A stretch of DNA of 64,000 nucleotides from Octopus vulgaris (Eukaryota). Where the stretch lies: assembly GCA_951406725.2 (NCBI GenBank), contig OX597816.1, forward strand, positions 75,888,001-75,952,000, in the 5' to 3' direction. Both the position numbers and the translations under genes were made by a program. Each line of letters starts with the position of its first letter. Within the stretch, counting starts at the first letter, position 1. Under the pieces are notes generated by a model. It searched no databases, was not told the DNA's origin, and saw nothing but the letters and a program-made list of their open reading frames with translations. Positions 1-62,359 of this stretch are shown here, piece after piece.

Positions 1-330
1 TTCGTCTGCCGCTACGTTCTGAGTTCAAGTTCAGCCGAGGTCAACTTTGCCTTGCATCCTTTCGGGGTCGATAAATTAAGTACCAGTTACGCACTGGGGT
101 CGATGAAATCGACTTAATCCGTTTGTCTGTCCTTGTTTGTCCTCTCTGTGTTTAGCCCCTTGTGGGTAGTAAAGAAATAGGTATTTCGTCTGCCGTTACG
201 TTCTGAGTTCAAATTTCACCGAGGTCGACTTTGCCTTTCATCCTTTCGGGGTCGATGCAATCGACTTAATCCTTTTGTCTGTCCTTGTTTGTCCCCTCTG
301 TATTTAGCCCCCTGTGAGCAATAAAGAAAT
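1..330 (+). mobile_element. SINE family A, dimeric copy (5' end cut by the window edge)
   Basis: Two tandem units of the core GTTCAAATT..CCGAGGTCGACTTTGCCTTTCATCCTTTCGGGGTCGAT, each followed by the tail TTGTCC(C/T)CTCTGT..AGCCCC..GTG...A(A/G)TAAAGAAAT. Homologous to copies at 2512, 50131 and 61665. Confidence 0.9.
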
Positions 331-699
331 ATATATTAGTGCGGCGACTAAATCGTCTATCAATGTTCTAAAACTTGAGGTATTAACTTCTAGTGTGTAT
401 ACAGAGGCGTACTATCAAATAGAGGATATTCTCAGACACAAAATCTTGAATACCCAAATGAACCATGATATTCCATGCCTTTTTCTGATTACGGCAATGA
501 TTGATAGTAATGATACATTCATCTTTATATTTAAAGTAAAGAGTGTGTAAATTAATGTGACTGAAAGGAAAATTCGCATCGAGGTTTCAAATTTAAGTTG
601 AAATCTAGGTTAGTTCTTATAGAAAAAGAGATATACCTTCATTTTAAATTAATTTTTATTATAAAAAATATTTACCAAAAGGCAATCTTTATATTCAGC

Positions 700-3356: not shown

Positions 3357-4187
3357 ATTTTGCTTGACTTTTGCTTTGCATTTGTACAAGTTGGCTCCAA
3401 GTATCATTGAGAGACCTCAAGAGACAAGTTAGAAGTTCATGTTGGTGTTATGCCTAAAGTGCCATATATTTGGTGGGCAGTTTCCATGAGCACTATCTTT
3501 TGAATTTCTGCCATTTTGAAATTTTCTGGTATCTGAGCTAGGTAGCAATCAGTCCCTTTTACTATCATTCCCAGGGTACCTATGACAACAGGTATTGTTT
3601 TAGTCATCAGGTTCCACATTTTGCTAATTTCTATTTCAAGATCTTTATATTTGCTCAGTTTTTGGTAGGTCTTGACAGATACATTTATATCGATTGGGAC
3701 AGTCATATCAATTAGTAGGTATGAGTTTTGTCTGAAGTCTTTTACTATGATGTCTGACCTATTCGCGTCTATCTTTCTGTCAGTTTGAATGATGAAGTTC
3801 CAGAGGAGTGAGTTGTGATAATTTTCAAGCACTGGAGGTGGTTTGTGTTCCCACCAGTTTTTATCATGGTGCAAGTCCAGGCTTTTGCAAATTACCCAGT
3901 AAATATGTTGTGAAGCTCTATCATGCCTGTTGAGATACTCTGTAGGCGAAAGAAGACTGCACATGGAGACAACATGATCAATGGTTTCATTTTGTTGTTG
4001 ACATACATGACATGTTGGGAAGCTGCCGTTCTTTAATATGTTGGCCTGGTAGTTCCTTGAAGGTAGGCATTGATCTTGGGCTACTCTGATAAACCCATCT
4101 GTTTCAGATTTTAAGCTAGAAGCCATTAGCCATTAGCCATTGATGGGTAAGGGCTTTGTCAACATCGGCATTATTCGCTCTCTTTGG

Positions 4188-11281: not shown

Positions 11282-12415
11282 TTAGAAACTCTTTTTGGCA
11301 TTGAACTGATGAGCTTTGTGATTGTCTCTAGTGGAATTTCTACCCACTTTCACGCAACAATCAAAACAATTCATCTTTAGATTTAGGTTTCTGTCGATGT
11401 TTTTGTTCGGCTCTATCTAGCATGTTCCAAAGATTTTCAATTGGGTTTATGCCAGGAGATTGCCTCGGCCAAGCAATCTTTTTGATCCCATTTTCAGTCA
11501 GCTATTGTTGATTCCTTTCGGTGTGTGGCATGGAGCCCCATCTTCCGTAACTAAAAACTCATTTTTCGTTATGTTATCGTGTGAATACATCTGAAGCAGT
11601 CTTTGCTTAAGTATTTCGATGTATTTTTCAGAATTTATGGTTCCAACACATTCAATCAGCTCAGAACAACCATTGTTGGTGACAGCTCCCCATACCATTA
11701 CAGAGATACCGCCATGTTTCACAGTTGGTTGGTGTCATTTCAAATCAAATTCTTGATTGGGCAGTGTCCAGAACTCAAACACGTCCACTGTCTGAAAATA
11801 ATGCAAATCTGGATTCATCTGAGAAAATCACTCTATCCCAAAAGGAACTGGATTTTTCTGACATCTCCTTAGCCCATGTCTTTCTTTTCATGATATTAAT
11901 TGGTTGAAGGAGCGTTTTTCTTCTAGCTGCTCGCCCATAATACCCAAGCTTATCAGATATGTAGCAAACGTTCTTGGACTAACTTCTAGCTGTTTTGCAA
12001 TGTCAGAAGCCTTCGAACGTGGTTCGTTTTCCACAATTCTCTTCAAATAGCGAAGCTTCCTTTCCGAGGGCCCAGGTCGGCCGGAAGGAGAATCTGTTGA
12101 TTCTTTTCCTTGGCTTTTGAATTGCACTATAATTCTATTAACAGTAGCAAGAGGAATTTGAAGATTTTCGGCAATTTTTCGCTGGCTAAGACCAGCCTCA
12201 GATTGCCCAGTAATACGATCGCTTTGAAAATCTGACAGTTCTGCCAAATTTTTTTTGTGCGCGGCATGGTTATTCTTCGCAAATGTTTAATATAATGGCA
12301 CCTGGAATGAAAAAGAATAATTTCATTTTTAAATTCTACATCGCTGAAAACATATGACGCTTAGATAAGAAATTTTGAAAATTAAAGGTATCTATTTACT
12401 TCCTGTATGGCTGTG
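11282..12415 (-). mobile_element. Degenerate Tc1-like DNA transposon
   Basis: HTH region (11888-12247: MAELSDFQ...GLSQRKIA...SGRP), FSDESRF, KHGGISVMVWG, EDGAPCH, SPGINPIENLW. One TIR-like end followed by TA at 12416. Confidence 0.9.
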
Positions 12416-19759: not shown

Positions 19760-21897
19760 TTGTGTATACAGGATGGATGGTTTGAACTCTGACCTTTTGT
19801 TAATAAGATTGTGTTTGTCTTTGAATTTCAAGATGTTCAGGAGTTCCACACAACATAGTTGGCATCCTGCTCTATTATTTAAATAGGGTGCAGCTGATCC
19901 GATGATGGACCACCTGAGTTTGAAGCCTATGCATTTGTCTTTTAATTCCCAATTTTTTTAGAAAGGGAGGTGCTGTTAGCTTTATGTCTGTGTTTCAGCG
20001 AGGACCGGTGGTTGTAGTATCTGGATTTCCAGGAGGTTGAGCAACCTATGTAGGTGAGTGTGTTAAACTGGGTACTCACCTCACATGAATATATTACGTT
20101 TTTCGCCCTACATGCGCCCTGTAGCGGACACTCGGATGCACATATGCAGTTGCAGTGCATTGCATTACTCGGTCGTGTGCTGTTAATCCCAGGCGGAGGT
20201 GTTGCATTACGTGTGGGGGCGTTGATATCCTCCTGGTTGTTGATGGGTGTGGTATTGCCTCTGTTGTGTTGGCGGGTGTTATTACTAACTGCTTGGGTAA
20301 TATGGCTGCCAGTCTGATTATATTGTCTACTATCTGGATGAGGGGGGTTCTGTTGGTCGCTGTAGCTTGCTCTTGATCTAGCTGTTCTAATATTAATATA
20401 GTTATGTTTAGCTATGAGGCAGCTCATGTTGGGCAGGGTAGAGTAGGAAATCCTAATGGTTTTGTTGGAGAAGATACTTCTATACTTATGGGTGGGTGGG
20501 AAGTTGTTGGAAATGATAGAGAATATTCTCTTACATAATTTACCCCTAACTGCTAAGTTGTATGGTATGTTGAACCATATATATTTGCGTAATCTACTAT
20601 TATCCCTTCTATTTCTCCTAATAGGATCTATATTGCTCTCGTCGGGAGGGTTACTATTGTGTGCTATTCTATTAGTTTGCCTTTTTCCTATACGTTGTTT
20701 AGAATTTAAATTAGAATTATCGTTAGCATGAGTTGAGTGCGGAGTTCGATTATAATTGGGAGTTTTACGGCCGACGGACGTTCCTGGGTGGTCTACATAT
20801 GATATTCTCTGGTTATACCCAGCACTATAGAGAGCCTGGTTGTAGTGTTGTGCGTGATTATTGAAAATTTCTCTATTAGAGGATAGTTTTGTAAGTCTGT
20901 CTGAGATGGCTTGGACCGTGGTGCTAATTATACAGGGTGGATGGTTGGAAGAGGTGTGGATGTATTTGGTAGTTTCTTCGGGTTTCCTATACGGGTGGTG
21001 AAGGTGCTTATTCAAGTCTAACGTAACATCTAAGAAGTTTACTATTTTAATATTGGTCATAAATTCTAGTTTAAGATTGAAGGATTTGAAAAAAAGCCTG
21101 ATCTTTTTCCTAATTCTTTCTAGTTTCCTATTGTTGGTGGGGTATATGAAGAGAGCGTCATCTCTGTATAGACGCCCCTGAAGATCCGGTACCTCGGAGA
21201 AAAGCTTCTTGAGCAGGTAGGCCCCGACCAAGTCAGTCACCTGAGCTGAATCGCTCGAGCCCATAGCCACATCAAAATTTTCGGGGGTATCGGATCTGGT
21301 CCAAAGTCTACCGTCGAATTCTATTATAGTTTTTCTGGCTAATAGTATTATGTCAATTTTTTCTCTGTCAATGAGCGAAAGGCTGCGGGCATATATAAGG
21401 GATTTGTTAAGTAAGATGGGGGATATACTGGCGTAGTAGTTAGCTATGTCGAACTGGATGAATGAGTAGTTGGGTCTGTTGGTGATTGTGTTAAACCATT
21501 CTAGCACATCGTCGGTGTTAATCCATAGTTGGAGTGGGATGTGGGGTTTGATGCGTGGGATCACCTTGTCCAGGGTAGTCTTACTAAGTCTGCCGATATC
21601 CGATTTAGTCGGACAGATTAATCGTACTCCTACGTTATCCGGGAAGTCTTTCTTATGGTCCTTAATAGTAATTTTGGGTACCTGTGGTTTGATCGGCTCC
21701 GTTCTGTCCAGGAGGTCTAATTTGCTCATAACTTCCTTGATTTTGTAGTTAATTTCCTTAAGGTTATCCGTAGAAGTAGTTTTATATTTTTTGCTAAGTT
21801 CCCTCATGATGAGCGATTTGTAGGTTTGGTAGTCCAACCTATACCAGTTCCCAGTCTTGTCGGCGGGTATGATAAGACTATCATCGTTAAGACGTCT
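19760..21897 (-). pseudogene. Penelope-like reverse transcriptase + GIY-YIG endonuclease ORF (5'-truncated, frameshifted near the C-terminus)
   Basis: PADKTGNWY, KDHK..F...RLICPTKSDIG, FDIANYY, MGSSDSA, LYRDD, FLDV, PYRKP, SNHPP, CNC..CPLQGAC, VIY..YIG. After a frameshift at ~19950 it continues WELKD..WSII..PY..CQLC..E..LINKRSE. Confidence 0.93.
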
Positions 21898-22042
21898 ATG
21901 TAAATAGAGGAATTTATCTGTAAATGTAATATGTGACAATTATTCGGTTACCATAATAATTGTCACATATTATATTCCAAATAAATTCCTCTATTTACAT
22001 AATATCAGGTCTCTTACATACTTTTGTTGTCTTACCATTACT
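21898..22042. repeat. 103-bp fold-back hairpin plus ~40-nt tail at the 5' truncation of the Penelope-like ORF
   Basis: ATGTAAATAGAGGAATTTAT / ATAAATTCCTCTATTTACAT and TAATATGTGACAATTATT / AATAATTGTCACATATTA. Confidence 0.85.
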
Positions 22043-25814: not shown

Positions 25815-26660
<846 letters not shown>

Positions 26661-26897: not shown

Positions 26898-27303
26898 TAC
26901 TTTTAATCTGCATGTATGTTACAGTCAATTGCCGAGGCACACCTACTGTTCTGGGTCTAGTGAAGAATAAGAGGTGTTACATTATGACTGAAAACGTTGG
27001 AAGGAGAAGTAGCGAAATATCTTCATGCAATGCAACACAGCCATTTGATTGGAAAGGGTTTTTCTAAGGATATGGGCAGTACTTATCAGTACAATGTTTT
27101 GGATTTCTCTGAGACATGGTTCTCCTGAGAACTTATCTAGATGTTTCTGACATCCATTTTTCATCATTCCTAGGGCACCGACATTAAAAGGAACAGTTCT
27201 CGTTTTAAGATGCCACATCTTTTGTATTTCAATTTCCAGGTCCTTATATCTACTTATTTTGTCAAATTCCCTGACAGATATATTCTTATCTGTAGGGACA
27301 CTT
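26897..27303 (-). mobile_element. R4/Dong-clade LINE 3' fragment
   Basis: SVPTDKNISVREFDKISRYKDLEIEIQKMW...VGALG...TAHILRKTL. Confidence 0.88.
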
Positions 27304-27319
27304 ATCATTATTATTATCA

Positions 27320-27390
<71 letters not shown>

Positions 27391-27946
27391 GAGTGAGAGA
27401 GCAGTGCATGCCATCAAAGTGACACTGGGGTAAAATATACGAAGCCCAATATACCCATCATGACTACCCGTCTGATAAAGGTACACCAGGCACATGCATC
27501 ACAACCATATGTGCGCGACATGGTGATCTCATATCAAGATAAACAGCACATGACCTTGCAGGTGGGGCTCAGTTGGAATTTTCTTCAGGTTGAGTAGCCC
27601 ATCCCGCTCAAAAGGTCCCTGAATAAGGGTTATTTAAGGATGTTGAAAGAACCACCCATGTTTCCAGAGGTGAATTATTCAAACCCCAAAGAATCCCTCT
27701 CAACACATGGCTATGATGCTCCCCCACTACTTCTGCTCGTGATCAGAGATGCACATATCGTCAGCCACTAAGGGACATGCTCAACTGGTTAAGGTCAAAC
27801 AACTGACAAGCAAATCTGTGGTATTGAGCAGAATATTTGCTGTAGCCCATCTTTTATACCAAGACAAAACAATGTACATGATAACACTTCCAATCAGTTA
27901 AGATCAGAAGCCATGAGAGTCACTGCCTGGTACTGCATCAGGGCAT
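27391..27946. repeat. Full-length ~556-bp non-coding interspersed element inside (TAA)n
   Basis: (ATT)n on both sides; five copies in the window. Confidence 0.9.
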
Positions 27947-37371: not shown

Positions 37372-38629
37372 GGGTTGGAAAAAGTAATGGAAACACCTTA
37401 AAATTTCAAACAAATTTATTTTAATATGGGGTAGGACCGCCTTTGGCATTAATTACAGCTTCGATTCTACGAGGTATGTACTCGTACAAAGTTTAAATTG
37501 TTTCCAAAGGAATCTTTGTCCATTTATACAGCTAAAACAGTCTCCAGTTCTTGTAGTGATGATGGTGGAGGATATCGACTCCTTACTCGTTTTTCTAAAA
37601 TGCGCCATAAATGTTCAATAATTTTGAGATCTGGGCACTGTGGTGGCCAGATAAGATATTCACTTTTACTAGAATGTTCCTCGAGCCATTCAGTAATAAA
37701 TTTAGCTGTGTGAATTTGTGCATTATCATCCTGAAGGATTGCAGTTCCGCTGCCATAGGATGAATTTGATCAAATAAAATGCTTAAACAGTCTTCACTAT
37801 TAATTCTGCCATGAAGAAAACCATTGGGCCGGCGGATTTCTAAGGTATATCCCCCCAGATCATTGCAGATCCTCCTCCATGTTTAACAGTTGGAAGCAGG
37901 CAGCCTGGGTCAAATGCTTCTTTTGGCTGTCTCCACACGTATACTCGGCCGGTAGTCGGAAATAAGGCAAGGATGACTCGTCCGAGAAAATAACATCCTT
38001 CCAATGCTCTACGGACCAATTCTGTAGGTTTTACTCCACTCTAAACGCTTTGCAACATTCGTTTTTGAAAGTAGTGGTTTTCTGATTGCAGCCCTCCCGT
38101 GAAATCCGACTCTGTGCAGCTCCCGGCGAACAGTTTTTGTGGAAACTGGGTTCTCGAGGTGGTCATTAAGCTCTGCAGTAATTTTGGGGGGGGCTGTACT
38201 TTTGTGATCTTTTCTAACAATTCGTGTAAGAGTCCAACGGTCCCTATCTAAAAGTTTTGGTTTTCTTCCGGAGTTTTGTTTCGACGAGGAGGTTTTTCTT
38301 TTTTTCTCAAAGGCTGTCATTACTTTCGAGACAGAACTTCTTGATTCACCACACATTTCGGCTGATTTTGTTACGCTAGCGCCTGCCATACGAACACCAG
38401 CAATTTGATCTCTTTGCAAGTCAGATAGATCTGTCATTTTAATGAATTTTAATTTACCTTTTTCTGATGATATCTGAAAAGAAACAGTAATTTTAGCAAA
38501 ACATATTAAGCAACCCTAATAATAAATAAAAAAAAAAACAAAAATAAACAAGCTTGTGACGGTTTTATAGATATTTCAAAATTATGATACTATGATGCTA
38601 GCTGTTTACATTATTTTGTCCAACCCCTG
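37369..38629 (-). mobile_element. Tc1-like transposon with both TIRs, TA target; transposase broken
   Basis: TA|CAGGGGTTGGA...TCCAACCCCTG|TA; ORF 38009-38437 HTH/GRKPKL; FSDESS, TVKHGGGSAMIWG, QDDNAQIH, WPPQCPDLKIIEHLW. Confidence 0.93.
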
Positions 38630-43395: not shown

Positions 43396-46300
43396 GAAAC
43401 ACACTTGAAAAAGACGTGCCCAACCAATGCACACCAAGAGCAACAACAACAACCACTACCACAACCAAAACACTCCGGAAAAAAGCTCTACTACCCACAC
43501 CACCATCAACACAGAAGACGACAAGAGAAGCACACCAAGCTAACCCGTCAACAACCAAAAATTACTCAACACCTGAGAAAATACCAACACCACAAACAAC
43601 AGCAAGAACCAAAGGGACAGAAAAACAAAGAAAATACACAAAAACTGATTCCCCATCCCTCATACCGCACTCATCACACACAAACACTCAACAACCAACA
43701 GCAACGAAAACAACAGCACAACCACTTACACAGACATACATAGAAGCCTACAACATACTGATTCCCCAGAAATTTCGTCGGAAGACGAAACCAGTGAGAA
43801 ATGGCAAATAGCTACATAAAGAAGGAAAATAAAGAGCAGAAACACAACCAAACCAAATGCAAACACAAACAAAGCAGGGGGAAATACATCTCCCGAAGAC
43901 ATTTCAAAACCCAACACAAACAACAGCCACACCAACATCACAAAAATATATACAGCAAACATGCTCACAGCTATAGACACCAAAAACACAAATTTGATGG
44001 AATACATCAAATCAAAAACAAACATAACAGAAGATGACATAGAAACAAACAATCACCCATACACAACACCACCAGACCACATCAAAATATTACACATCTC
44101 CAAAAGTCTGCACCACACACTCAAAGGCATTTTCCCCAGTGCGGTTGGTAAATGCCAAAAATATCTCACAAAGAAACTGTACTGGGATCTCCTCGAGGAC
44201 AAACCAAACGAGGAGAAAGCAAAAACTTTCGAGCAGTAAGTAACCCTCTGTTCCTTTCACTTGTATTCTAATTCATTAGGATTATGATCAAGATTGGTTG
44301 TGTAAATGCGCGTGGTTTGGGGTCCCCTTGGAAACAAGGGTACCTCTTAAATTACATAAAGTCACATAAGTTAGAAATCATAGCCATAAGTGAGACCAGA
44401 CTCCACAATCCGCGGGCCCTAAAGACCATGTTTGGCGGACAGTTCAACATTTATTTTCCCCCCTGTCTTCCAAGAATGGGCGGTAGTGGCACCGCGGTAC
44501 TTTTTCGCAAGAGTCTGGATCTCAAAGTAAAGACAATATTCGTAGACACGGAGGGTAGACTGGTTGTCCTGGATGCCGATGGCAGCAATGGGTGCGCTTT
44601 TCGACTCCTATCAGTCTACGCACCGCCCTTAACAGGTCGGGCGGATTTCTTTCAACGTCTAGAAGTATTCTTGGGAACGTCTCGTCCTTTACTCTTAGTG
44701 GGGGATTGGAATGCTACCTTGGACACGCATGTAGACTACGTGGGTAGAGATAGGAATAGACGGGGATGCAAATGCCTCAGAGACCTGCTCAGACGCTTTC
44801 AACTGTCTGACAGGGTCCGAATAGACCACCCAAATGCGCCAACGTGGACATGGAGCAACCGCATCGGGTCGTCGAGATCGTATCTAGATAGGATACTGTG
44901 TAGGATAGTAGATAGTGAGAGCGTAGGATGTCCACAATTCCACATAGTCAGCTACATGGATCACAAACTTGTAACATGTACGCTAGACTTAGGTAAGACA
45001 CTTAGGCAGGGTGCCGGATACTGGAAACTAAACGCGTCTTTCCCATCGAGACAGGTTTTCAGAGACCGGATTAGCACACTAGTAAAGAAGACTTTAACGG
45101 GAGCCATCATCAACAACAAATGGTGGTTTGCCCTCAAGAGAAAGTAAAAGCAGAAACGATTAGGTACAGCAAAGCACTAGCCATAGATAGAAATAGAGTA
45201 GAGGGTGAACTAGTTAAGAAGCTAGAAGAGGCAATTAAAAGCGGCATCGCATCCAACGTTTTGGCGGCTTTGTTGGCCCTCGACCAACACTTCAACGCCA
45301 AACACGAAGGGTGTGCTGTCAGAGCTAGGATGCGTGCTCTAAGGAACGAAGGTGTTGGAGCTGCGAGAGAGTCCCGGGTGGCAGAGGCGCAACAGGGCAA
45401 CAAAGCCGCCATTCGGTCTCTGGTAGATGAACAGGGGCGCGAATTGCTCGAGCCAAGTAAAATGTGTGAGGCCTTTCAACAGCATTTTGCCCAACTGTTC
45501 GGGACGAGTGGCGGGCAAGAACGTAGGGTGGACTTCAGTGCCTACCTACACAGCCTACCACGATTCTCGACAAGAGAGGCAGGGTGCTGCGAAGGTGCCA
45601 TCACGGCGGCGGAAGTACAGGACTCGATGGCAGAATGCTCGAGGGACAAATCACCGGGTTTGGATGGTCTACCCTACGAGCTTTACAATTGTATGCCAGA
45701 CTTGTTTGGAGATGTCTTGGCGGCGGTGTACTGCAACTGGCAGCAAAACGGGAGCATTCCTGGTTTTGTGAGCCGAGGAGCCGTAACACAGCTGAAGAAA
45801 GATCTAAACAAGGGAAATGTAATAAATAACTTTAGGTCCATCACTCTGCTTAATGCAGACTTGATAATTTTGGCCAAGGTGCTAGCCAAGAGGTTGGCAC
45901 TTGTCATCGAGAAACTGGTCGACAAGGCGCAAGCATGCGCCGTGCCGGGCCGGACCATCCATGACAACCTCCACCTGATGCGCTACATCATAGACAGGGT
46001 AGTTAACGAACCTGGCATGGGTGGGGCGCTGATCAATTTGGATCAATCGAAAGCTTTCGATAGGGTGGACCATCGATACTTGGAGGCAGTCCTCAGAGCA
46101 GCTGGCTTCGGTCCTGTCTAGCCTGGCAGTGCTACCGAGAAGCGCTACCCGTTCGGGATAAGCTCTACAGACACGGCTCGAGAAACACGGGGCCGACCTG
46201 CCCGAGATGCGGTCAGAGCGACGAAACCGTTCTGCACGCACTCGTGCAGTGTCCAACAATCTCCGACCTGTGGGCTTATGTCGAACGACTGCTGTCACGT

Positions 46301-47060
46301 GTGGGACGAGTCGGTTTATCAGCTGAGTCTATCGTCAATATTGTCACGCCTCCTTCCTTCAAACGGGAAGGAAGAGTTATTTTCATCATCCTTGTGGCTA
46401 TGGCGAAAGAATGTATCTGGTGGACACGTCCGAAAGGATTGGAGACAAACACTTTCCTCTCTGGTCAATCTCTCATCAACTTCTTCAAGTACCACTTGAA
46501 AAGGAAAGTGAGAGTAGAGAGAAAGGTTTTGTCTAGCGAATGTTTAAAAAAAAGATGGGTGAATGTAGCAAGGATGGCACGTATGAATGACGAAGCCACC
46601 TTGAGCATAATCCTATGAACCCAGAAACTGAAAACAGAGGGTTACCCACTTGCAAACAAATGTGGTAACATATAACAATATTGACCAAGGTCACCGTGGT
46701 CTTTTTCGTAGGCTTTCCTTCCTACGGATAAACCTTACTTGCTTTCCCCTTTACACCATACATCATAACACTGTGATACACGATCCCTATTGATCATTTT
46801 TTTCCTCTTCTCCTTTTCCCCCCCTTTTTTCTTCTTTTTTTCATTTCTCTTTTCTTTTGTTCCTTTTCCTTTTTTTCTTTCTTTTCTTTTTTTGTATTTT
46901 TTGTTCTTTTTTTCCCTTTTACGATCCCTTTTGATCGAAAACCTACGCCACCTTTTTTTTTGTCTCTTTTGTTTTTTGTTTTTTTTAATCCCCCAAAAGA
47001 AAAGCTCTACCTTGTAACTTGTCCCATCTGTGTGCAGCCCTGTGTGGCCAATAAAGAAAC
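43396..47060 (+). mobile_element. Tx1/L1-like LINE, 5'-truncated and internally deleted
   Basis: Thr-rich ORF1 tail, APE endonuclease, partial RT, C-terminal CCHC finger, U-rich 3' UTR ending AATAAAGAAA. Lies between (TATG)n and (TATC)n. Confidence 0.9.
44284..46618 (+). pseudogene. LINE ORF2 pseudogene (APE endonuclease - RT - zinc finger)
   Basis: NARGL, SET, VYAP, GDWNA, SYLDR, DH, GYWKLN; frameshift ~45140; KSPGLDGLPYE, RSITLLNAD, LDQSKAFDRVDH; jumps at ~46119 to LAWQ..REALPV..CPRC..ETVLHALVQC. RT catalytic YxDD is deleted. Confidence 0.92.
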
Positions 47061-47061
<1 letters not shown>

Positions 47062-47226: not shown

Positions 47227-47632
47227 ACTCTTTTACTCTTTTACTCTTTTACTTGTTTCAGTCATTTGACTGCGGCCATGCTGGAGCATCGCCTTTAGTC
47301 GAGCAAATCGACCCCGGGACTTATTCTTTGTAAGCCCAGTACTTATTCTATCGGTCTTTTTTGCCGAACCGCTAAGTGACGGGGACGTAAACACACCAGC
47401 ATCGGTTGTCAAGCAATGCTAGGGGGACAAACAAAGACACACAAATATATATACACACACACACTTATATATATATATATATACATATATACGACAGGCT
47501 TCTTTCAGTTTCCGTCTACCAAATCCACTCACAAGGCATTGGTCGGCCCGAGGCTATAGCAGAAGACACTTGCCCAAGATGCCACGCAGTGGGACTGAAC
47601 CCGGAACCATGTGGTTGGTTAGCAAGCTACTT
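47227..47632 (-). mobile_element. SINE family B, 3' part (split by an insertion)
   Basis: Stops at GTTAGCAAGCTACTT; the rest of the tRNA head resumes at 49834. Confidence 0.92.
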
Positions 47633-49833
47633 TATTTCAAAACATTTGCCATAAAGGCAGTACACAGATTAAGTTAGCTTTGCGGGCTGGACGAGGACAT
47701 TAATGAAGTGAATGATAATGAAAGAAAGATGATAAGGATGGGAGAAGACAAAAAGCGCCCGCCGACTTTCGCTTCTCTAAAACATTGTTCTTTTTAAGGA
47801 TAAACACAAAACGAGGTATTAAACCTCTTACAATTTTTCCAATTTTTGGATTTAGCAGTCCATTATTAATAAAAATAAACACAAAACGAGGTATTAAACC
47901 TCTTACAATTTTTCAATTTTTGAACTTAGCAGTCCATTACTAATAATAACAGTTCAATAATTACATATCGTCCTCGAAGTCACTTGTGCCCGCGCCCTCC
48001 ACCATCAATCACGCCTCCCTCAGAACGTAATCAAGTTCCGAGTCAGCGTCGCTCGGGACCAAGTTATAGTCTTCCTTGAGCTCCTTTAGCCCAAGCGTCA
48101 CGTCGAACGTCACGGCCTCCACAGCTACCTGCGGAGGCCATTCGGGGTCCTGTGTGAAGGCTAAAGGTGCTCCCTTGTGATGCTCTTCCATCACTTTTTC
48201 AATTTCTCCTCCTCTATAGAAGAGGACCAATACGTTCAGTTCTTTCGGTGGCGGCACAGTTCCCGCCAACGGTATTCCTTCTCTTGTCGGTGGCACAACC
48301 CCAACCGACGTAGTTCCGGGACATTCCGGTGCTACACTGACAGTCGGTAATGTCCCGTTTTTCTTCCTCTTTTTCTTTTTTTTCCCTTTTCAACTAGGGA
48401 GGGTGCGTCTACTCCGTGGCTGGAAGATTCGCCTTCCTCTCTTCATCCCTATTATCCTTTGGTGAGCACCCATTGTTGCTCACCTTCCTCTTTCGGCCTC
48501 TGTTTGAGGAGTCCTCTGCTTTCTCGGCCGTTATCATTCCCTCTTCTAGAGGGGTTTTACTTAACTGTTCCGGGATCCTATTTTGTTCCCGGGGCCAGTT
48601 CTTCTTTATGTGGCCGGACTCCAAGCACCGATAACACTTAGGGGAGCGACCCTCAAGCATCACCGGGTACCTGCACCCGGCCATTTTCAAAAAATCTGGA
48701 AGAACCAGATTGGCTGATTGGGTCCACAGGGTCAAAATTGCTTTTGACCCAACCCAAGCAGCCGCAGGAAGAACTTTTACATTAAGGAGCTTAGTTTCGC
48801 TGCCACCCAGACCCCGGCGGATAGTCTCCTCTATCCACTCGGGTTCTATGTCGGGTGGCAGGCCGCAAATCCAAGCTTTCATCAATTTCTTTTTTTTGTA
48901 CGTGGGCAGGAATAAGATTTCCTTACCCTCCAGGGGTTTGCTAGCAAATTTGCAAGCCTCTTCAGGGGTGTCAAATAGCAACCACACCGTTGCATATTTG
49001 ACACCCCTGGAAATGAATTTAATTGTTGGCAAATACTCTTCCAACTCCTTTTCAATTGCCGTCTTTTCGAATAGGGCGATGGTGTCGAGTGCCTTGGAGT
49101 AGGTTCTCAACACCACCGTCCTATCTTCACGGTCTTTTAACCACTTTTTAGGCGGTATGATCTCCCATTCCAAAAGTTTGTTATTTTTCGTTGTCATGTT
49201 TTGTTTTTTTTTGTTTCTTTTTTGTTTTTTTTTTAAATGTATTCAGAATAAAACTAAAAAACGAGAAGAAAAGGAAATCCGAAGAAAGTCACAGTGAAAA
49301 AAGGAGAGAGTCAAATAAAGTTAAAAAGAAAGTCAAATAAAGTTAAAAAGAAAGTCAATAACACAGCAAAAACCTTCTGGCCATTTGGTACTCCCGGCCT
49401 AAATTGAACCAGGAACGCACAACTTCCACAAAAATTGGTGTAAAATTGGTAAAACTTGTTCAAACTTCGGAGGCAAAATACTCCCCTATATAGCAGTTTT
49501 CACAAAAAGTTCTTTACAGCACAATACAATTCTCACAATTACGTGAAAAAAATATTCACTCAATTTATCGAAGACGGATACGCCCCTCCACTGTTTTTTT
49601 TTCAATGAACACAAAAACGGCAGCCGCCGAGAGCAGGCGAAATTGTCTCAGAGTTGGACACAACTTACTGAAATAATAATTGGCACGCAATAAATTATGC
49701 CCAACTCACAATAAACAAAATCCCTTACCTCGACAACTTTCCGTTTTTGGTCTTTTTTCTTTAATTGGACGGAGCTGGTTGACTCGCGTCCACTCTGGCT
49801 GAACAGGAAGCAACTGACTAACTGCGCATGTGT
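47633..49833 (-). mobile_element. ORF1-only (gag-like) non-autonomous retroelement with a 15-bp TSD
   Basis: TSD GTTAGCAAGCT(A/G)CTT at 47618-47632 and 49834-49848; ends ...GAAATAAA; no RT or endonuclease. Confidence 0.82.
48009..49197 (-). pseudogene. Tx1/L1-type ORF1 protein (RRM-like region + zinc knuckle), one frameshift
   Basis: ORF 48409-49197 has GLPPDI..EWI and LEGRSPKCYRCLESGHIKKNW (CCHC with the last C>W). One indel near 48412-48445 joins it to ORF 48009-48296 (~395 aa in total). Confidence 0.78.
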
Positions 49834-49871
49834 GTTAGCAAGCTGCTTACCACACAGCCACTCCTGCGCCT
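49834..49871 (-). mobile_element. SINE family B, 5' head remnant
   Basis: Minus strand AGGCGCAGGAGTGGCTGTGTGGTAAGCAGCTTGCTAAC. Confidence 0.9.
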
Positions 49872-49874
49872 ATA

Positions 49875-51244
49875 TATATTTATATATATTTGGCGGGGAA
49901 TTTGTATTTTATTTGTATTTTATAAATTTAAATTCTTATAATCTTATGTTTTTGTATTACATTTCAGTCTTATTTCTCGACTGTATTCCATTACATAAGC
50001 TTTGCCTCCACATATATTTCAATGTACTTTATAATACATTTTCTTTTCTTCAAGCATCACTCATCATTCTGTATCAATCTGTATCGTCAAGTTTCATTCG
50101 TCATTTTGTATCGTAAAAACTGTTGCCTATAAGGCGGAGAGCTGGCAGAATCGTTAGCACGCCAGGCGAAATGCTCAGCAGTATTTCGTCTGTCGCTACA
50201 TTCTGAGTTCAAATTCCGCCGAGGTTGACTTTGTCTTTCATCCTTTCGGAGTCGATTAAATAAGTACCAGTTACACACTGGGGTCGATATAATCGACTTA
50301 ATCCGTTTGTCTGTCCTTGTTTGTCCCTTTTGTGTTTAGCCCCTTGTGGGTAGTAAAGAAATAGGTATTTCATCCGTCTTCATGTTCTGAATTCAAATTC
50401 CATACAGGTCGACTTTGCCTTTCATCGTTTTGGTGTCGATAAAATATGTACCAATTGAGTACTGGGGTTAATGTAATCGACTTATCTCTCTGTTAAAATT
50501 GCTTGTCTAGTGCCAAAATTTGAAATCAATAGTTGCCTATTTATATTATTATACTAGTATAACGGTCTTCGAATTATTGCTCTATTGCATATTAACTCAT
50601 CTATACTTCACACATAAATTTCATCCAGATCACACTTCTATTCTTATGGAACTTCACCTCTTTCATGAAAGCCTACTTACACTCAGAACATAGTCTTTAA
50701 TATGCAGAACCAAATAATTGCTTCTAAAAATAAATATGTGAATAATAGATGTTATTACAATTTAATAATCTCACTAGCAATTATATTTCTGAACATTATA
50801 ATCGAAAATATCAATCCTGATATATAACATATTTTGCTCCTTGCTTTCTAGATTCTCCTAATGTATACAAATCAATACTATTGTTCTTTACACCAAAAGT
50901 AATACTAACATATAACTTCACTGTAATGTAAAACATAGTACTTTATCACTACTACAGTTAACTATTTTTATCTTTACATAATATATTTCAATGTACTTGA
51001 TTTTGCATTAATACCCTACAGCTTTTTATTATCTTTCGTATTCTATTCTTTGCATTTATTTCCAAATATATAAATGTCGCCTTAGGTTGTTTACGGAGAT
51101 ATCTGGATGTAAACTGTATTTTTCTTATCGAAAGTGAAATTCTACAATACCAGTTACTGTACATATAAGTTTTAAAATATTTTTCCTCAGCCGTATATCT
51201 TGATAGCTTTTTTATGTATATTCCCCGCCAAATATATATAAATA
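49875..51244. mobile_element. AT-rich element bounded by inverted repeats, hosting a SINE
   Basis: TATTTATATATATTTGGCGGGGAAT (to 49901) / ATTCCCCGCCAAATATATATAAATA (from 51220). Confidence 0.5.
50131..50531 (+). mobile_element. SINE family A, full dimeric copy with a 9-bp TSD
   Basis: TSD GTTGCCTAT at 50122-50130 and 50532-50540. Confidence 0.92.
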
Positions 51245-56036: not shown

Positions 56037-57229
56037 GCAGTATATTTTTTTCGCGTGCTTTCACTTCACTACCGGGCGCAGCTCTGTGTGCCTTGGGTAT
56101 GTGCTGAGATTTGTTGTGATGCTCTGATGGTTACTGTATGGAAAGTGTTCTGCGTAGGATGTGTGCAGTGCCTAGTAGTGCAATTTTCTGTATGTTATAT
56201 GTGTTTGTAAATCCTGGTGTTTTTGTTATGTATTTGTCTGAATATTTTTTTATCATGCCTAATGCACCTATTATGATAGGAATTGTTTCTGTTTTTAGAT
56301 TCCACGTTCTGGTTACCTCTATTTCCAGGTCTTTGTATTTTGAAACTTTCTCCATTTCTTTTAGAGACACGTTGTCATCTGCTGGTATTGATACATCAAT
56401 TAGAAAGCATTTTTCTTCATGATCTCTGACAACTATATCTGATCTGTTGGCCTTAATTTCTGTGTGTATTGGCATATCCCAGAGTATGGTTGCTTTCTCG
56501 TTTTCTGTGACCTTTTCAGGTGTGTGCCTATACCATCTTTTTTCTGTTGTTATTTCATAATGTTGGCATAGCTTCCAGTGTATATAGGTCCCAACTCTGT
56601 CGTGTCTGTGAATATATTCCTTCTTAGCCAGAACTGGGCAGCCAGAGATAATATGATTTATTGTTTCTTGTCCATCTCCACATATTCTGCAGTTGCTTGT
56701 TATATTTCTTTTCATTACATGTTTTTGGTAATTTCTGGTGGGAAGGCTTTGGTCTTGTGCTGCAATTAAAAATCCTTCTGACTCTGCTTTGAGTCCTGAG
56801 CTTCTCAACCATTGCTGGGATTTTTCTTTGTCTATTTCTGTTGCGTTTAGTTTAGTCCAGTATTTACCATGAAGGGGCTTTTCTTGCCATCGTTTTATCA
56901 TGGTTCGTTGCTGTTCTATTTTTAGTTTGGATTTCATTTGTTTTATAGCTTTTGTTGTTTATTCATCTTCTTCTTCTTCTTCTTCTTCTTCTTCTTCTTC
57001 TTCTTCTTCTTCTTCTTCTTCTTCTTCTTCTTCTTCTTCTTCTTCTTCTTCTTCTTCTTCTTCTTCTTCATATTTGTTAGATGGTATGATTTCTTGTTTG
57101 TATTTGTCAGCTTCCTTAAATACTGAGAACAGTCTTTTGTTTTGTTCGTGTTTTGCCGCTATTTGTATCAGTTTTCCTTCCTTCTGAAGTAGATATTTTT
57201 GCAGTCCTATGGTGGTTATTTTATAATAG

Positions 57230-61664: not shown

Positions 61665-62030
61665 TTTCTACTCCAGGCACAAGGCCCGAAATTTTTGGGG
61701 AGGGGACCAGTCAATTAGATCATCCCCAGTACGCAACTGGTACTTAATATATCGACCCTGAAAGGATGAAAGGTATAGTCAGCCACGGCGGAATTTGAAC
61801 TCAGAACGTAAAGACAGACGAAATACCTATTTCTTTACTACCCACAAGGGGCTAAACAAAGAGAAGACAAACAAGGACAGACAAACGGATTAAGTCGATT
61901 ATATCGAACCCAGTGCATAACAGGTACTTATTTAATCGTCCCCGAAAGGATGAAAGGCAAAGTCGACCTCGGCGGAATTTGAACCCAGAATGTAGCGGCA
62001 GACGAAATGCCACTAAGAATTTCGCCGGGC
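61665..62030 (-). mobile_element. SINE family A dimeric copy
   Basis: Reverse complement of the head-core-tailA-core-tailB structure. Confidence 0.88.
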
Positions 62031-62359
62031 GGTTACAATATCATTGGTTGTAAGAGCACTAGGAAGAATGAATAAATAAAAGACTCGAAAATTATTTGAG
62101 ACTGTTTCTTTGCTTACCATCCTCTTAATAAGTGTAAAATGTTATTTTTACTGGTACGTAACACGTATTGAGAACAGCATTGTCGCTGTGAGAAGGATAA
62201 CCTTCCATGTAAATAATTTATTTTTCTACACAACTTTATTTGATATTGTAAATAAACAATCTTGTGTACTTACTTTTCTCGACCCAAAGTATCGGGAAGA
62301 CACTCAACGAGAAATGGAAACAAAATTCAAGGAGGAAAAAATAACTCATAATAATAGTA

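Follow-up and report, generated by a model that had tools for sequence, protein, structure and literature searches.

Each component of the octopus system described in this report is known separately: half-LINEs, target-specific Tx1 elements with partners, stringent 3' hairpins, and HeT-A. The HAL1 elements of mammals have a poly(A) tail, and HeT-A belongs to a LINE clade different from that of the elements considered here. According to the accessible parts of the reports cited in this paragraph, mammalian HAL1 is a non-autonomous element that comes from an L1-type element and carries only ORF1 (PMC5753468). Drosophila HeT-A lacks a reverse transcriptase (RT), has its own Gag/ORF1, and shares its target with the RT-coding partners TART and TAHRE (PMC5537684). 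Sequence-specific insertion into repeats is described for Tx1L in Tx1D, for Kibi and Koshi in microsatellites, and for crocodilian Tx1-Mar, with SINEU-3, in Mariner-N4_AMi; as in the octopus system, a Tx1 partner was inferred there from a common target, and tandem insertions occur (PMC4494074). In the stringent pairs of eel UnaL2 and of monocot L1 elements with maize and sorghum SINEs, LINE and passenger have a covarying 3' hairpin in common (PMC3747384). Octopus genomes are rich in tRNA-Core and tRNA-Deu SINEs, and L1-Tx1 is among the families shared by coleoids; the accessible text of that report does not mention the targets of octopus L1-Tx1 elements (PMC8967140). OR1 and OR2 of octopus have been named as CORE SINEs (PMC4824008, PMC4758252).

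We analyzed a window of 64,000 nucleotides from Octopus vulgaris (assembly GCA_951406725.2, contig OX597816.1, positions 75,888,001 to 75,952,000), and followed its retroelements through the genome. We have good confidence in the following reading: a covarying 3' hairpin is conserved throughout a clade of LINEs, and an ORF1-only element ending in this hairpin, here called the half-LINE, inserts at one base of a SINE and is likely copied by the ORF2 protein of a second element, LINE-T. The half-LINE has the features of a HAL1-type element, in that it encodes ORF1 only, is multicopy with 5' truncations and target duplications, and has an ORF1 homologous to LINE ORF1s. It is not mammalian HAL1 proper, as its host is an octopus and poly(A) is absent from all 30 ends inspected; it also differs from HAL1 in its structured tail, its single SINE insertion base, and an ORF1 only 29% identical to that of its likely mobilizer. 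Whereas SINEU ends in poly(A), the octopus passenger is protein-coding and ends in a hairpin, and the octopus target is the head of a tRNA-type SINE (PMC4494074). Unlike in the UnaL2 and monocot pairs, the octopus hairpin occurs in an animal L1/Tx1-like clade, in at least seven ORF2 families, and marks the clade rather than a pair. HeT-A is found at telomere ends, whereas the half-LINE occupies an internal SINE site. The octopus combination was not found in the literature searched; Repbase entries and older subscription papers were beyond the scope of the search and may bear on novelty.

The half-LINE in the window is a full-length copy of ~2.2 kb on the minus strand (47631..49846), including a target-like first 13 nt. 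Its 3' signal (47647..47668) comprises TCTGTGT (47668-47662), the stem strand TGCC (47659-47656), a 5-nt loop, TTTAT, and the strand GGCA (47650-47647). The poly(A)-less terminus (47631..47646) ends in GAAATAAA at 47631 and directly abuts the target. ORF1 (47961..49197, minus strand), which measures ~410 aa across copies, has an RNA-binding-like N-terminal part, a CCHC knuckle, and an acidic C-terminus; in this copy, the frame is interrupted by two stops (48411-48409 and 48011-48009) and by a frameshift near an A-run at ~48390-48360. The interrupted SINE, SINE B, has its 5' head with an A-box-like part at 49847..49871 and the rest at 47230..47630, both on the minus strand. The 3' target copy (47618..47630, minus strand) is the point where SINE B resumes, and the 13-nt 5' copy (49834..49846, minus strand) differs from it by one mismatch; in full-length half-LINE copies, the 5' copy is partly carried by the element. 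The A box is presumptive, assigned from the general A-box consensus, and SINE B may correspond to the CORE-SINE OR1/OR2. A tandem duplication of ~75 nt is visible in the half-LINE 3' UTR (47810-47950, minus strand), and close subfamilies have the same duplication. The first-pass annotation had quoted similar 3' ends for this element, for a LINE (LINE-M), and for a second SINE (SINE A), all of which we located in the window sequence. It had also noted AAAGC..TAACTT upstream of the hairpin in the LINE and half-LINE; an AGCT(A)C-like word does recur in most half-LINE subfamilies and in LINE-T, but TAACTT is peculiar to the subfamily of the window copy.

The ORF1-only element, as first proposed from this single copy, proved to belong to a genuine non-autonomous family, whose own ORF1 has been maintained by selection. 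By using the last 469 nt as query against the 2.8-Gb assembly, we obtained 2,200 candidates, of which the best 40 were scored and 30 fetched; because only best candidates are scored in the genome searches, young copies are over-sampled. The copies were chosen through their own 3' sequence, not through SINE B, and in 30/30 the 3' endpoint is the same base of the tRNA-type SINE B head (one end finishes in T). A SINE B head lies ~2.1-2.3 kb upstream in 18 of the 20 loci that were extended. Coding content was restricted to pieces of ORF1 (21 copies), and ORF2 was not found in 20 diverged loci, half of which have a SINE head 1.95-2.45 kb upstream. The exact half-LINE/SINE B junction occurs 476 times in the genome (control, 0) and its gapped version 94 times, and empty SINE B sites number 57,456 exact matches. 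Among copies, similarity is 98.8% over the final 120 nt of the element, compared with 90.3% over the first 120 nt of flanking SINE and ~56% over distal flanks; in a second comparison, the element ends were 99.4% similar and the flanking SINE B 92.9%, with unrelated distal flanks. Copies are 5'-truncated at differing points, and target duplications reach 13-14 nt. The half-LINE insertions are therefore independent events, because the element varies far less than its SINE flank and truncated copies carry duplications.

The target-like 5' end of full-length copies is partly constant within each subfamily and can mismatch the local SINE. This mismatch suggests that the target-like end travels on the half-LINE RNA. 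The same half-LINE 3' end is found behind 5' UTRs of at least three unrelated kinds and behind ORF1s of two types (~69% nucleotide identity). One subfamily (L022, L023, L026, L028, and L030; also L075, L076, L078, and L080) has the same 3' 640 nt (94%) behind another 5' UTR, and the N-terminal part of its ORF1 is 69% identical, a pattern of modular swapping behind a constant tail. At another locus (L077), three tandem SINE B heads precede a half-LINE copy.

Comparison between subfamilies shows purifying selection on half-LINE ORF1. When one natural copy was used as reference and compared with 17 copies from diverged subfamilies, dN/dS was 0.10-0.30 in 15 comparisons, at dS of 0.8-1.9; the other two values, 0.39 and 0.53, probably result from frameshifted codons. 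The CCHC knuckle gives a weak Pfam match, and language-model features, which we treat as a lead, place the protein near CCHC/RNA-binding clusters. The ORF1 is 41% identical to that of the L431 family, 29% to that of LINE-T (E 1e-23), and 28% to that of LINE-M. The first two values argue against an origin of the half-LINE by deletion from present-day LINE-T; on these identities, the element is either old or chimeric. For LINE-T ORF1, protein relatives were not found at E<=0.001. Contigs that cover parts of the half-LINE occur in four runs whose RNA status is a guess, and are evidence on expression neither way.

The SINE B site also revealed LINE-T. Among the first 30 of the 476 exact junctions, 20 are half-LINE-like, 7 have ORF2 C-termini, 2 have a LINE-T-type tail lacking an ORF2 match, and 1 has a hairpin tail or end only. 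Three full-length LINE-T copies of 5.45 kb contain ORF1 and an ORF2 with endonuclease, RT, and zinc-finger regions (Pfam). LINE-T copies, which are 99-100% alike, end at the SINE B base of the half-LINE in 30/30 cases, and 14 among the 150 matches listed have intact ORF2 frames of at least 1133 aa. The LINE-T tail, TGCC-TAAAT-GGCA followed by AAT...GAAATAAA, is of the same type as that of the half-LINE. Given its intact ORF2, its tail type, and its insertion site, LINE-T is likely the mobilizer of the half-LINE. The use of a shared target as evidence of partnership has a precedent in Tx1-Mar and SINEU (PMC4494074, accessible part).

LINE-T and LINE-M are LINEs of the L1 superfamily by architecture, with ORF1 plus an ORF2 containing an APE endonuclease, an RT, and a C-terminal zinc region, and the best solved relatives of the endonuclease are human L1 ORF2 structures. 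In a quick tree, which comprised octopus families, one Argonauta protein, and outgroups lacking a named Tx1 reference, the two ORF2 proteins fall on separate branches (SH-aLRT 99). Protein matches agree with an octopus host: those of ORF2 come from Argonauta and Octopus, and a further match, at 64%, is to a protein of Octopus sinensis. A target preference in more than 20% of flanks has been used as a mark of Tx1 elements (PMC4494074, accessible part), and such preferences are present in LINE-T (30/30), in LINE-M (20/30), and in a family associated with (ATT)n. Our label "Tx1-like" is thus based on targeting and architecture, not on RT phylogeny with named Tx1 elements.

In the motif common to these 3' ends, TCT-TGT precedes a hairpin of 4 bp that encloses a loop of 5 nt, and the AATAAA end, which lacks poly(A), follows after 10-20 nt; the LINE-M variant has 3 bp and a 6-nt loop. 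An RNAalifold prediction from 33 distinct ends gave this same 4-bp stem. Paired nucleotides occupy 92.4% of 132 cells, and two-sided changes occur at all four pairs (for example, CGCC/GGCG, TGTC/GACA, and GGCT/AGCC). The paired fraction was matched by 0/500 shuffles and four two-sided pairs arose in 2/500, whereas slid controls gave 14-49%; the stem is short, the rows (one per apparent subfamily) were cut around and anchored on the hairpin, which favors it, and related sequences can beat shuffles without structure. The loop varies, except that its final nucleotide is T in 32/33. A common 3' tail with a covarying stem-loop, the mark of stringent pairs, is accordingly present. Within families, the motif was conserved in 30/30 half-LINE ends and in 27/30 LINE-M loci, namely those with a located 3' end. 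A covariance model built from the 33 ends gave six strong matches in the window (E<=0.0013), all at element 3' ends, of which three are training sequences and three are further SINE A units. Neither outcome that the first-pass annotation had named as refuting, a motif variable within families or one lacking enrichment at 3' termini, was observed. The pattern TCTGTGTNNNGCC matches the window three times compared with 0.04 expected, although it was read off the same sequences and is post hoc. An Rfam search returned only two chance microRNA matches, on a microsatellite.

Versions of the hairpin end at least seven ORF2 families: LINE-T, LINE-M, the (ATT)n family, a family in tandem arrays, L242, L268/L431, and L352/L432. 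The first-pass annotation had regarded the hairpin as a cis signal recognized by one ORF2 lineage. In a broad sense this is supported, as a conserved, covarying 3' signal was found, but it belongs to an L1/Tx1-like clade of octopus rather than to LINE-M specifically. Because families with different targets have the hairpin in common, it cannot name a partner, but targets can; a common tail alone therefore does not identify the partner of a SINE or half-LINE.

Some of these families have distinctive arrangements. The (ATT)n family (L212-L241 and L429; for example, G000:C47, C50, and C4:93.80-93.83 Mb) is young and L1/Tx1-like, with open ORF2 frames of 1145 aa; (ATT)n follows its copies, which form head-to-tail arrays of ~5.87 kb, with long runs of units on the small contigs C47 and C50. 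The tandem family (L254-L271 and L430; for example, G000:C22:14.18-14.25 Mb and C30:10.44-10.45 Mb) is also young, has 1132-aa ORF2 frames, and forms arrays of ~5.27 kb whose junctions vary; the hairpin of SINE A is matched most closely by the tail of this family, GCCC-CTTGT-GGGT. In an older family (L242-L250), one non-SINE sequence recurs behind most of the 3' ends and may be a further specific target.

The original proposal was a trio in which the ORF2 of LINE-M would move both the half-LINE and SINE A. The LINE-M copy in the window (43396..47061, plus strand) is 5'-truncated in ORF1, has an internal deletion at ~46119, and contains an ORF2 with endonuclease, RT, and zf-RVT; its 3' signal (47027..47048, plus strand) consists of TCTGTGT (47027-47033) and GCC-CTGTGT-GGC (47037-47048). 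Over the last 40 nt, its tail is very like that of SINE A (z 7.0) and less like that of the half-LINE (z 3.6), to which the LINE-T tail is closer (z 5.9). SINE A-type ends also precede (TATC)4 in 157 cases compared with 94 for the opposite orientation, (GATA)4. However, (TATG)4 is about equally frequent behind SINE A ends (145, some of them counted twice), and all of these amount to ~0.1% of ~100,000 ends, so the counts indicate no special role of LINE-M for SINE A. At LINE-M ends, at least four TATC units follow directly in 20/30 loci, flanks are shorter or different in 7/30, and 3/30 have no located end; the SINE B site follows in 0/30. (TATC)n is also found 5' of truncated LINE-M copies (L211; 5/6 loci), and the LINE-M end was not found among the 94 gapped SINE B junctions. 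LINE-M was therefore rejected as mobilizer of the half-LINE, since it targets (TATC)n and never SINE B. With the half-LINE tail closer to that of LINE-T, which lies on a separate ORF2 branch, and SINE A showing no clear preference for LINE-M targets, the trio in its strict form is very improbable. It is also scarcely credible that half-LINE and SINE B form one composite that is copied as a unit, such that the half-LINE hitchhikes without site-specific insertion. The fixed 5' end that sometimes mismatches the local SINE variant could be read in that sense, but the flank varies much more than the element, target duplications are found at copies with many different truncation points, and the same SINE B base is used by unrelated 5' UTRs, by LINE-T, and by some SINE A copies.

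A different question is what the hairpin does. It might be retained for 3'-end formation or stability of RNAs that lack poly(A), rather than for recognition by ORF2, in which case half-LINE and LINE-T would still use the same site. The position of the hairpin fits such a role, because in elements at the SINE B site it lies just before AATAAA and its distance from the end hardly varies (19-22 nt). Families with ORF2 proteins that differ by ~40% also have the same hairpin. On the other hand, SINE A, which is tRNA-type and probably transcribed by Pol III, retains the hairpin even where AATAAA became AGTAAA, and the accessible part of PMC3747384 describes such 3' stem-loops as a mark of stringent recognition. 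We consider a processing or stability role unlikely.

Recognition of the tail by the LINE-T ORF2 protein thus remains the preferred reading, and it can be cast as a sequence of steps. The half-LINE RNA would be packaged by its own ORF1 protein. The LINE-T ORF2 protein would bind the TCT-TGT and hairpin tail instead of poly(A), and its endonuclease would nick SINE B just behind the A-box region. Target-primed reverse transcription may then begin at the AATAAA end, and joining of the other side may be aided by the target-like 5' end of the RNA. For the clade as a whole, the hairpin would be the signal to copy an RNA, and the endonuclease of each family would set the place of insertion; in the accessible part of PMC4494074, the endonuclease is what sets the target in such elements. 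More tentatively, and a little short of what we would call probable, the clade could be a modular system in which one poly(A)-independent hairpin licenses any RNA, and swappable endonucleases direct it to a SINE head, (TATC)n, (ATT)n, or other repeats. An old lineage of ORF1-coding parasites without ORF2 would ride on this system, its ORF1 under selection, swapping 5' UTRs and ORF1s behind a constant tail. Its seats would be tens of thousands of SINE landing pads behind the A box, where it would disable the SINE promoter.

SINE A has the tail of the hairpin clade, as originally proposed. In the window, it is represented by two tandem units (1..331, plus strand; hairpin regions 143-173 and 295-325), by a unit followed by a SINE A-like head remnant (50131..50362, plus strand; hairpin region 50327-50357), and by a unit on the minus strand (61826..62031; hairpin region 61864-61834). 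SINE A may correspond to the published element OK. Its direct match to the half-LINE over the last 40 nt is weak (z 1.8; 51/1000 shuffles). A SINE A 3' pattern, limited by a final non-C base, has 97,751 matches; by hand count, 50 of the first 100 ends listed run into the head of SINE A itself, joined at one position and frequently forming 184-bp tandem units, whereas SINE B follows at none of the 100. Among the 94 gapped SINE B junctions, however, nine have a SINE A end, compared with 0.5-1.3 expected at one base by chance, although short shared junction sequence could inflate this count. Five of the nine were checked and are SINE A, two of them forming an inverted pair. This excess indicates that LINE-T probably moves SINE A on occasion. 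One further copy at the SINE B site (L084) is chimeric, with the body of SINE A joined to a tail of half-LINE/LINE-T type, and has a 12-nt duplication.

Searches for a LINE of SINE A's own found no ORF2 upstream at any of 26 loci with a hybrid tail pattern, nor at any of 30 examined among 196 matches to a SINE A-head junction pattern. Several ORF2 families have tails similar to that of SINE A; protein queries P0007, P0008, and P0005 all retrieved the same (ATT)n family, and P0015 retrieved several others. SINE A likely uses the hairpin clade, mainly through a member absent from the families found here and rarely through LINE-T. At another locus (L411/L428; G000:C2:5426000-5435999), an unrelated ORF1-bearing element, 37% identical to LINE-T ORF1, begins at the SINE B site. 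A SINE A multimer has inserted into it, with a duplication of ~16 nt; whole SINE A arrays can therefore be moved together to other sites.

In this animal L1/Tx1-type system, RNA thus appears to be selected through a structured tail of very small size, not through poly(A). Because several young, intact ORF2 families with different targets coexist in one genome, the question of stringent versus relaxed recognition in L1-clade elements becomes directly testable, as does the separation of RNA choice from target choice within the octopus clade. The half-LINE also indicates that, given a site-specific helper, an element with ORF1 alone can survive while purifying selection maintains its protein.

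The window contains further elements. Several fragments of another LINE type, with similar C-terminal protein sequence, lie at 3437-4132, 26137-26526, 26982-27413, and 56131-56958 (minus strand), and fragments that by eye resemble Tc1/mariner transposases at 11888-12286 and 38009-38515 (minus strand). An open frame of 665 aa (19942-21939, minus strand) has no Pfam match at E<=0.1; by eye, it resembles a Penelope-type RT with a GIY-YIG-like C-terminal part.
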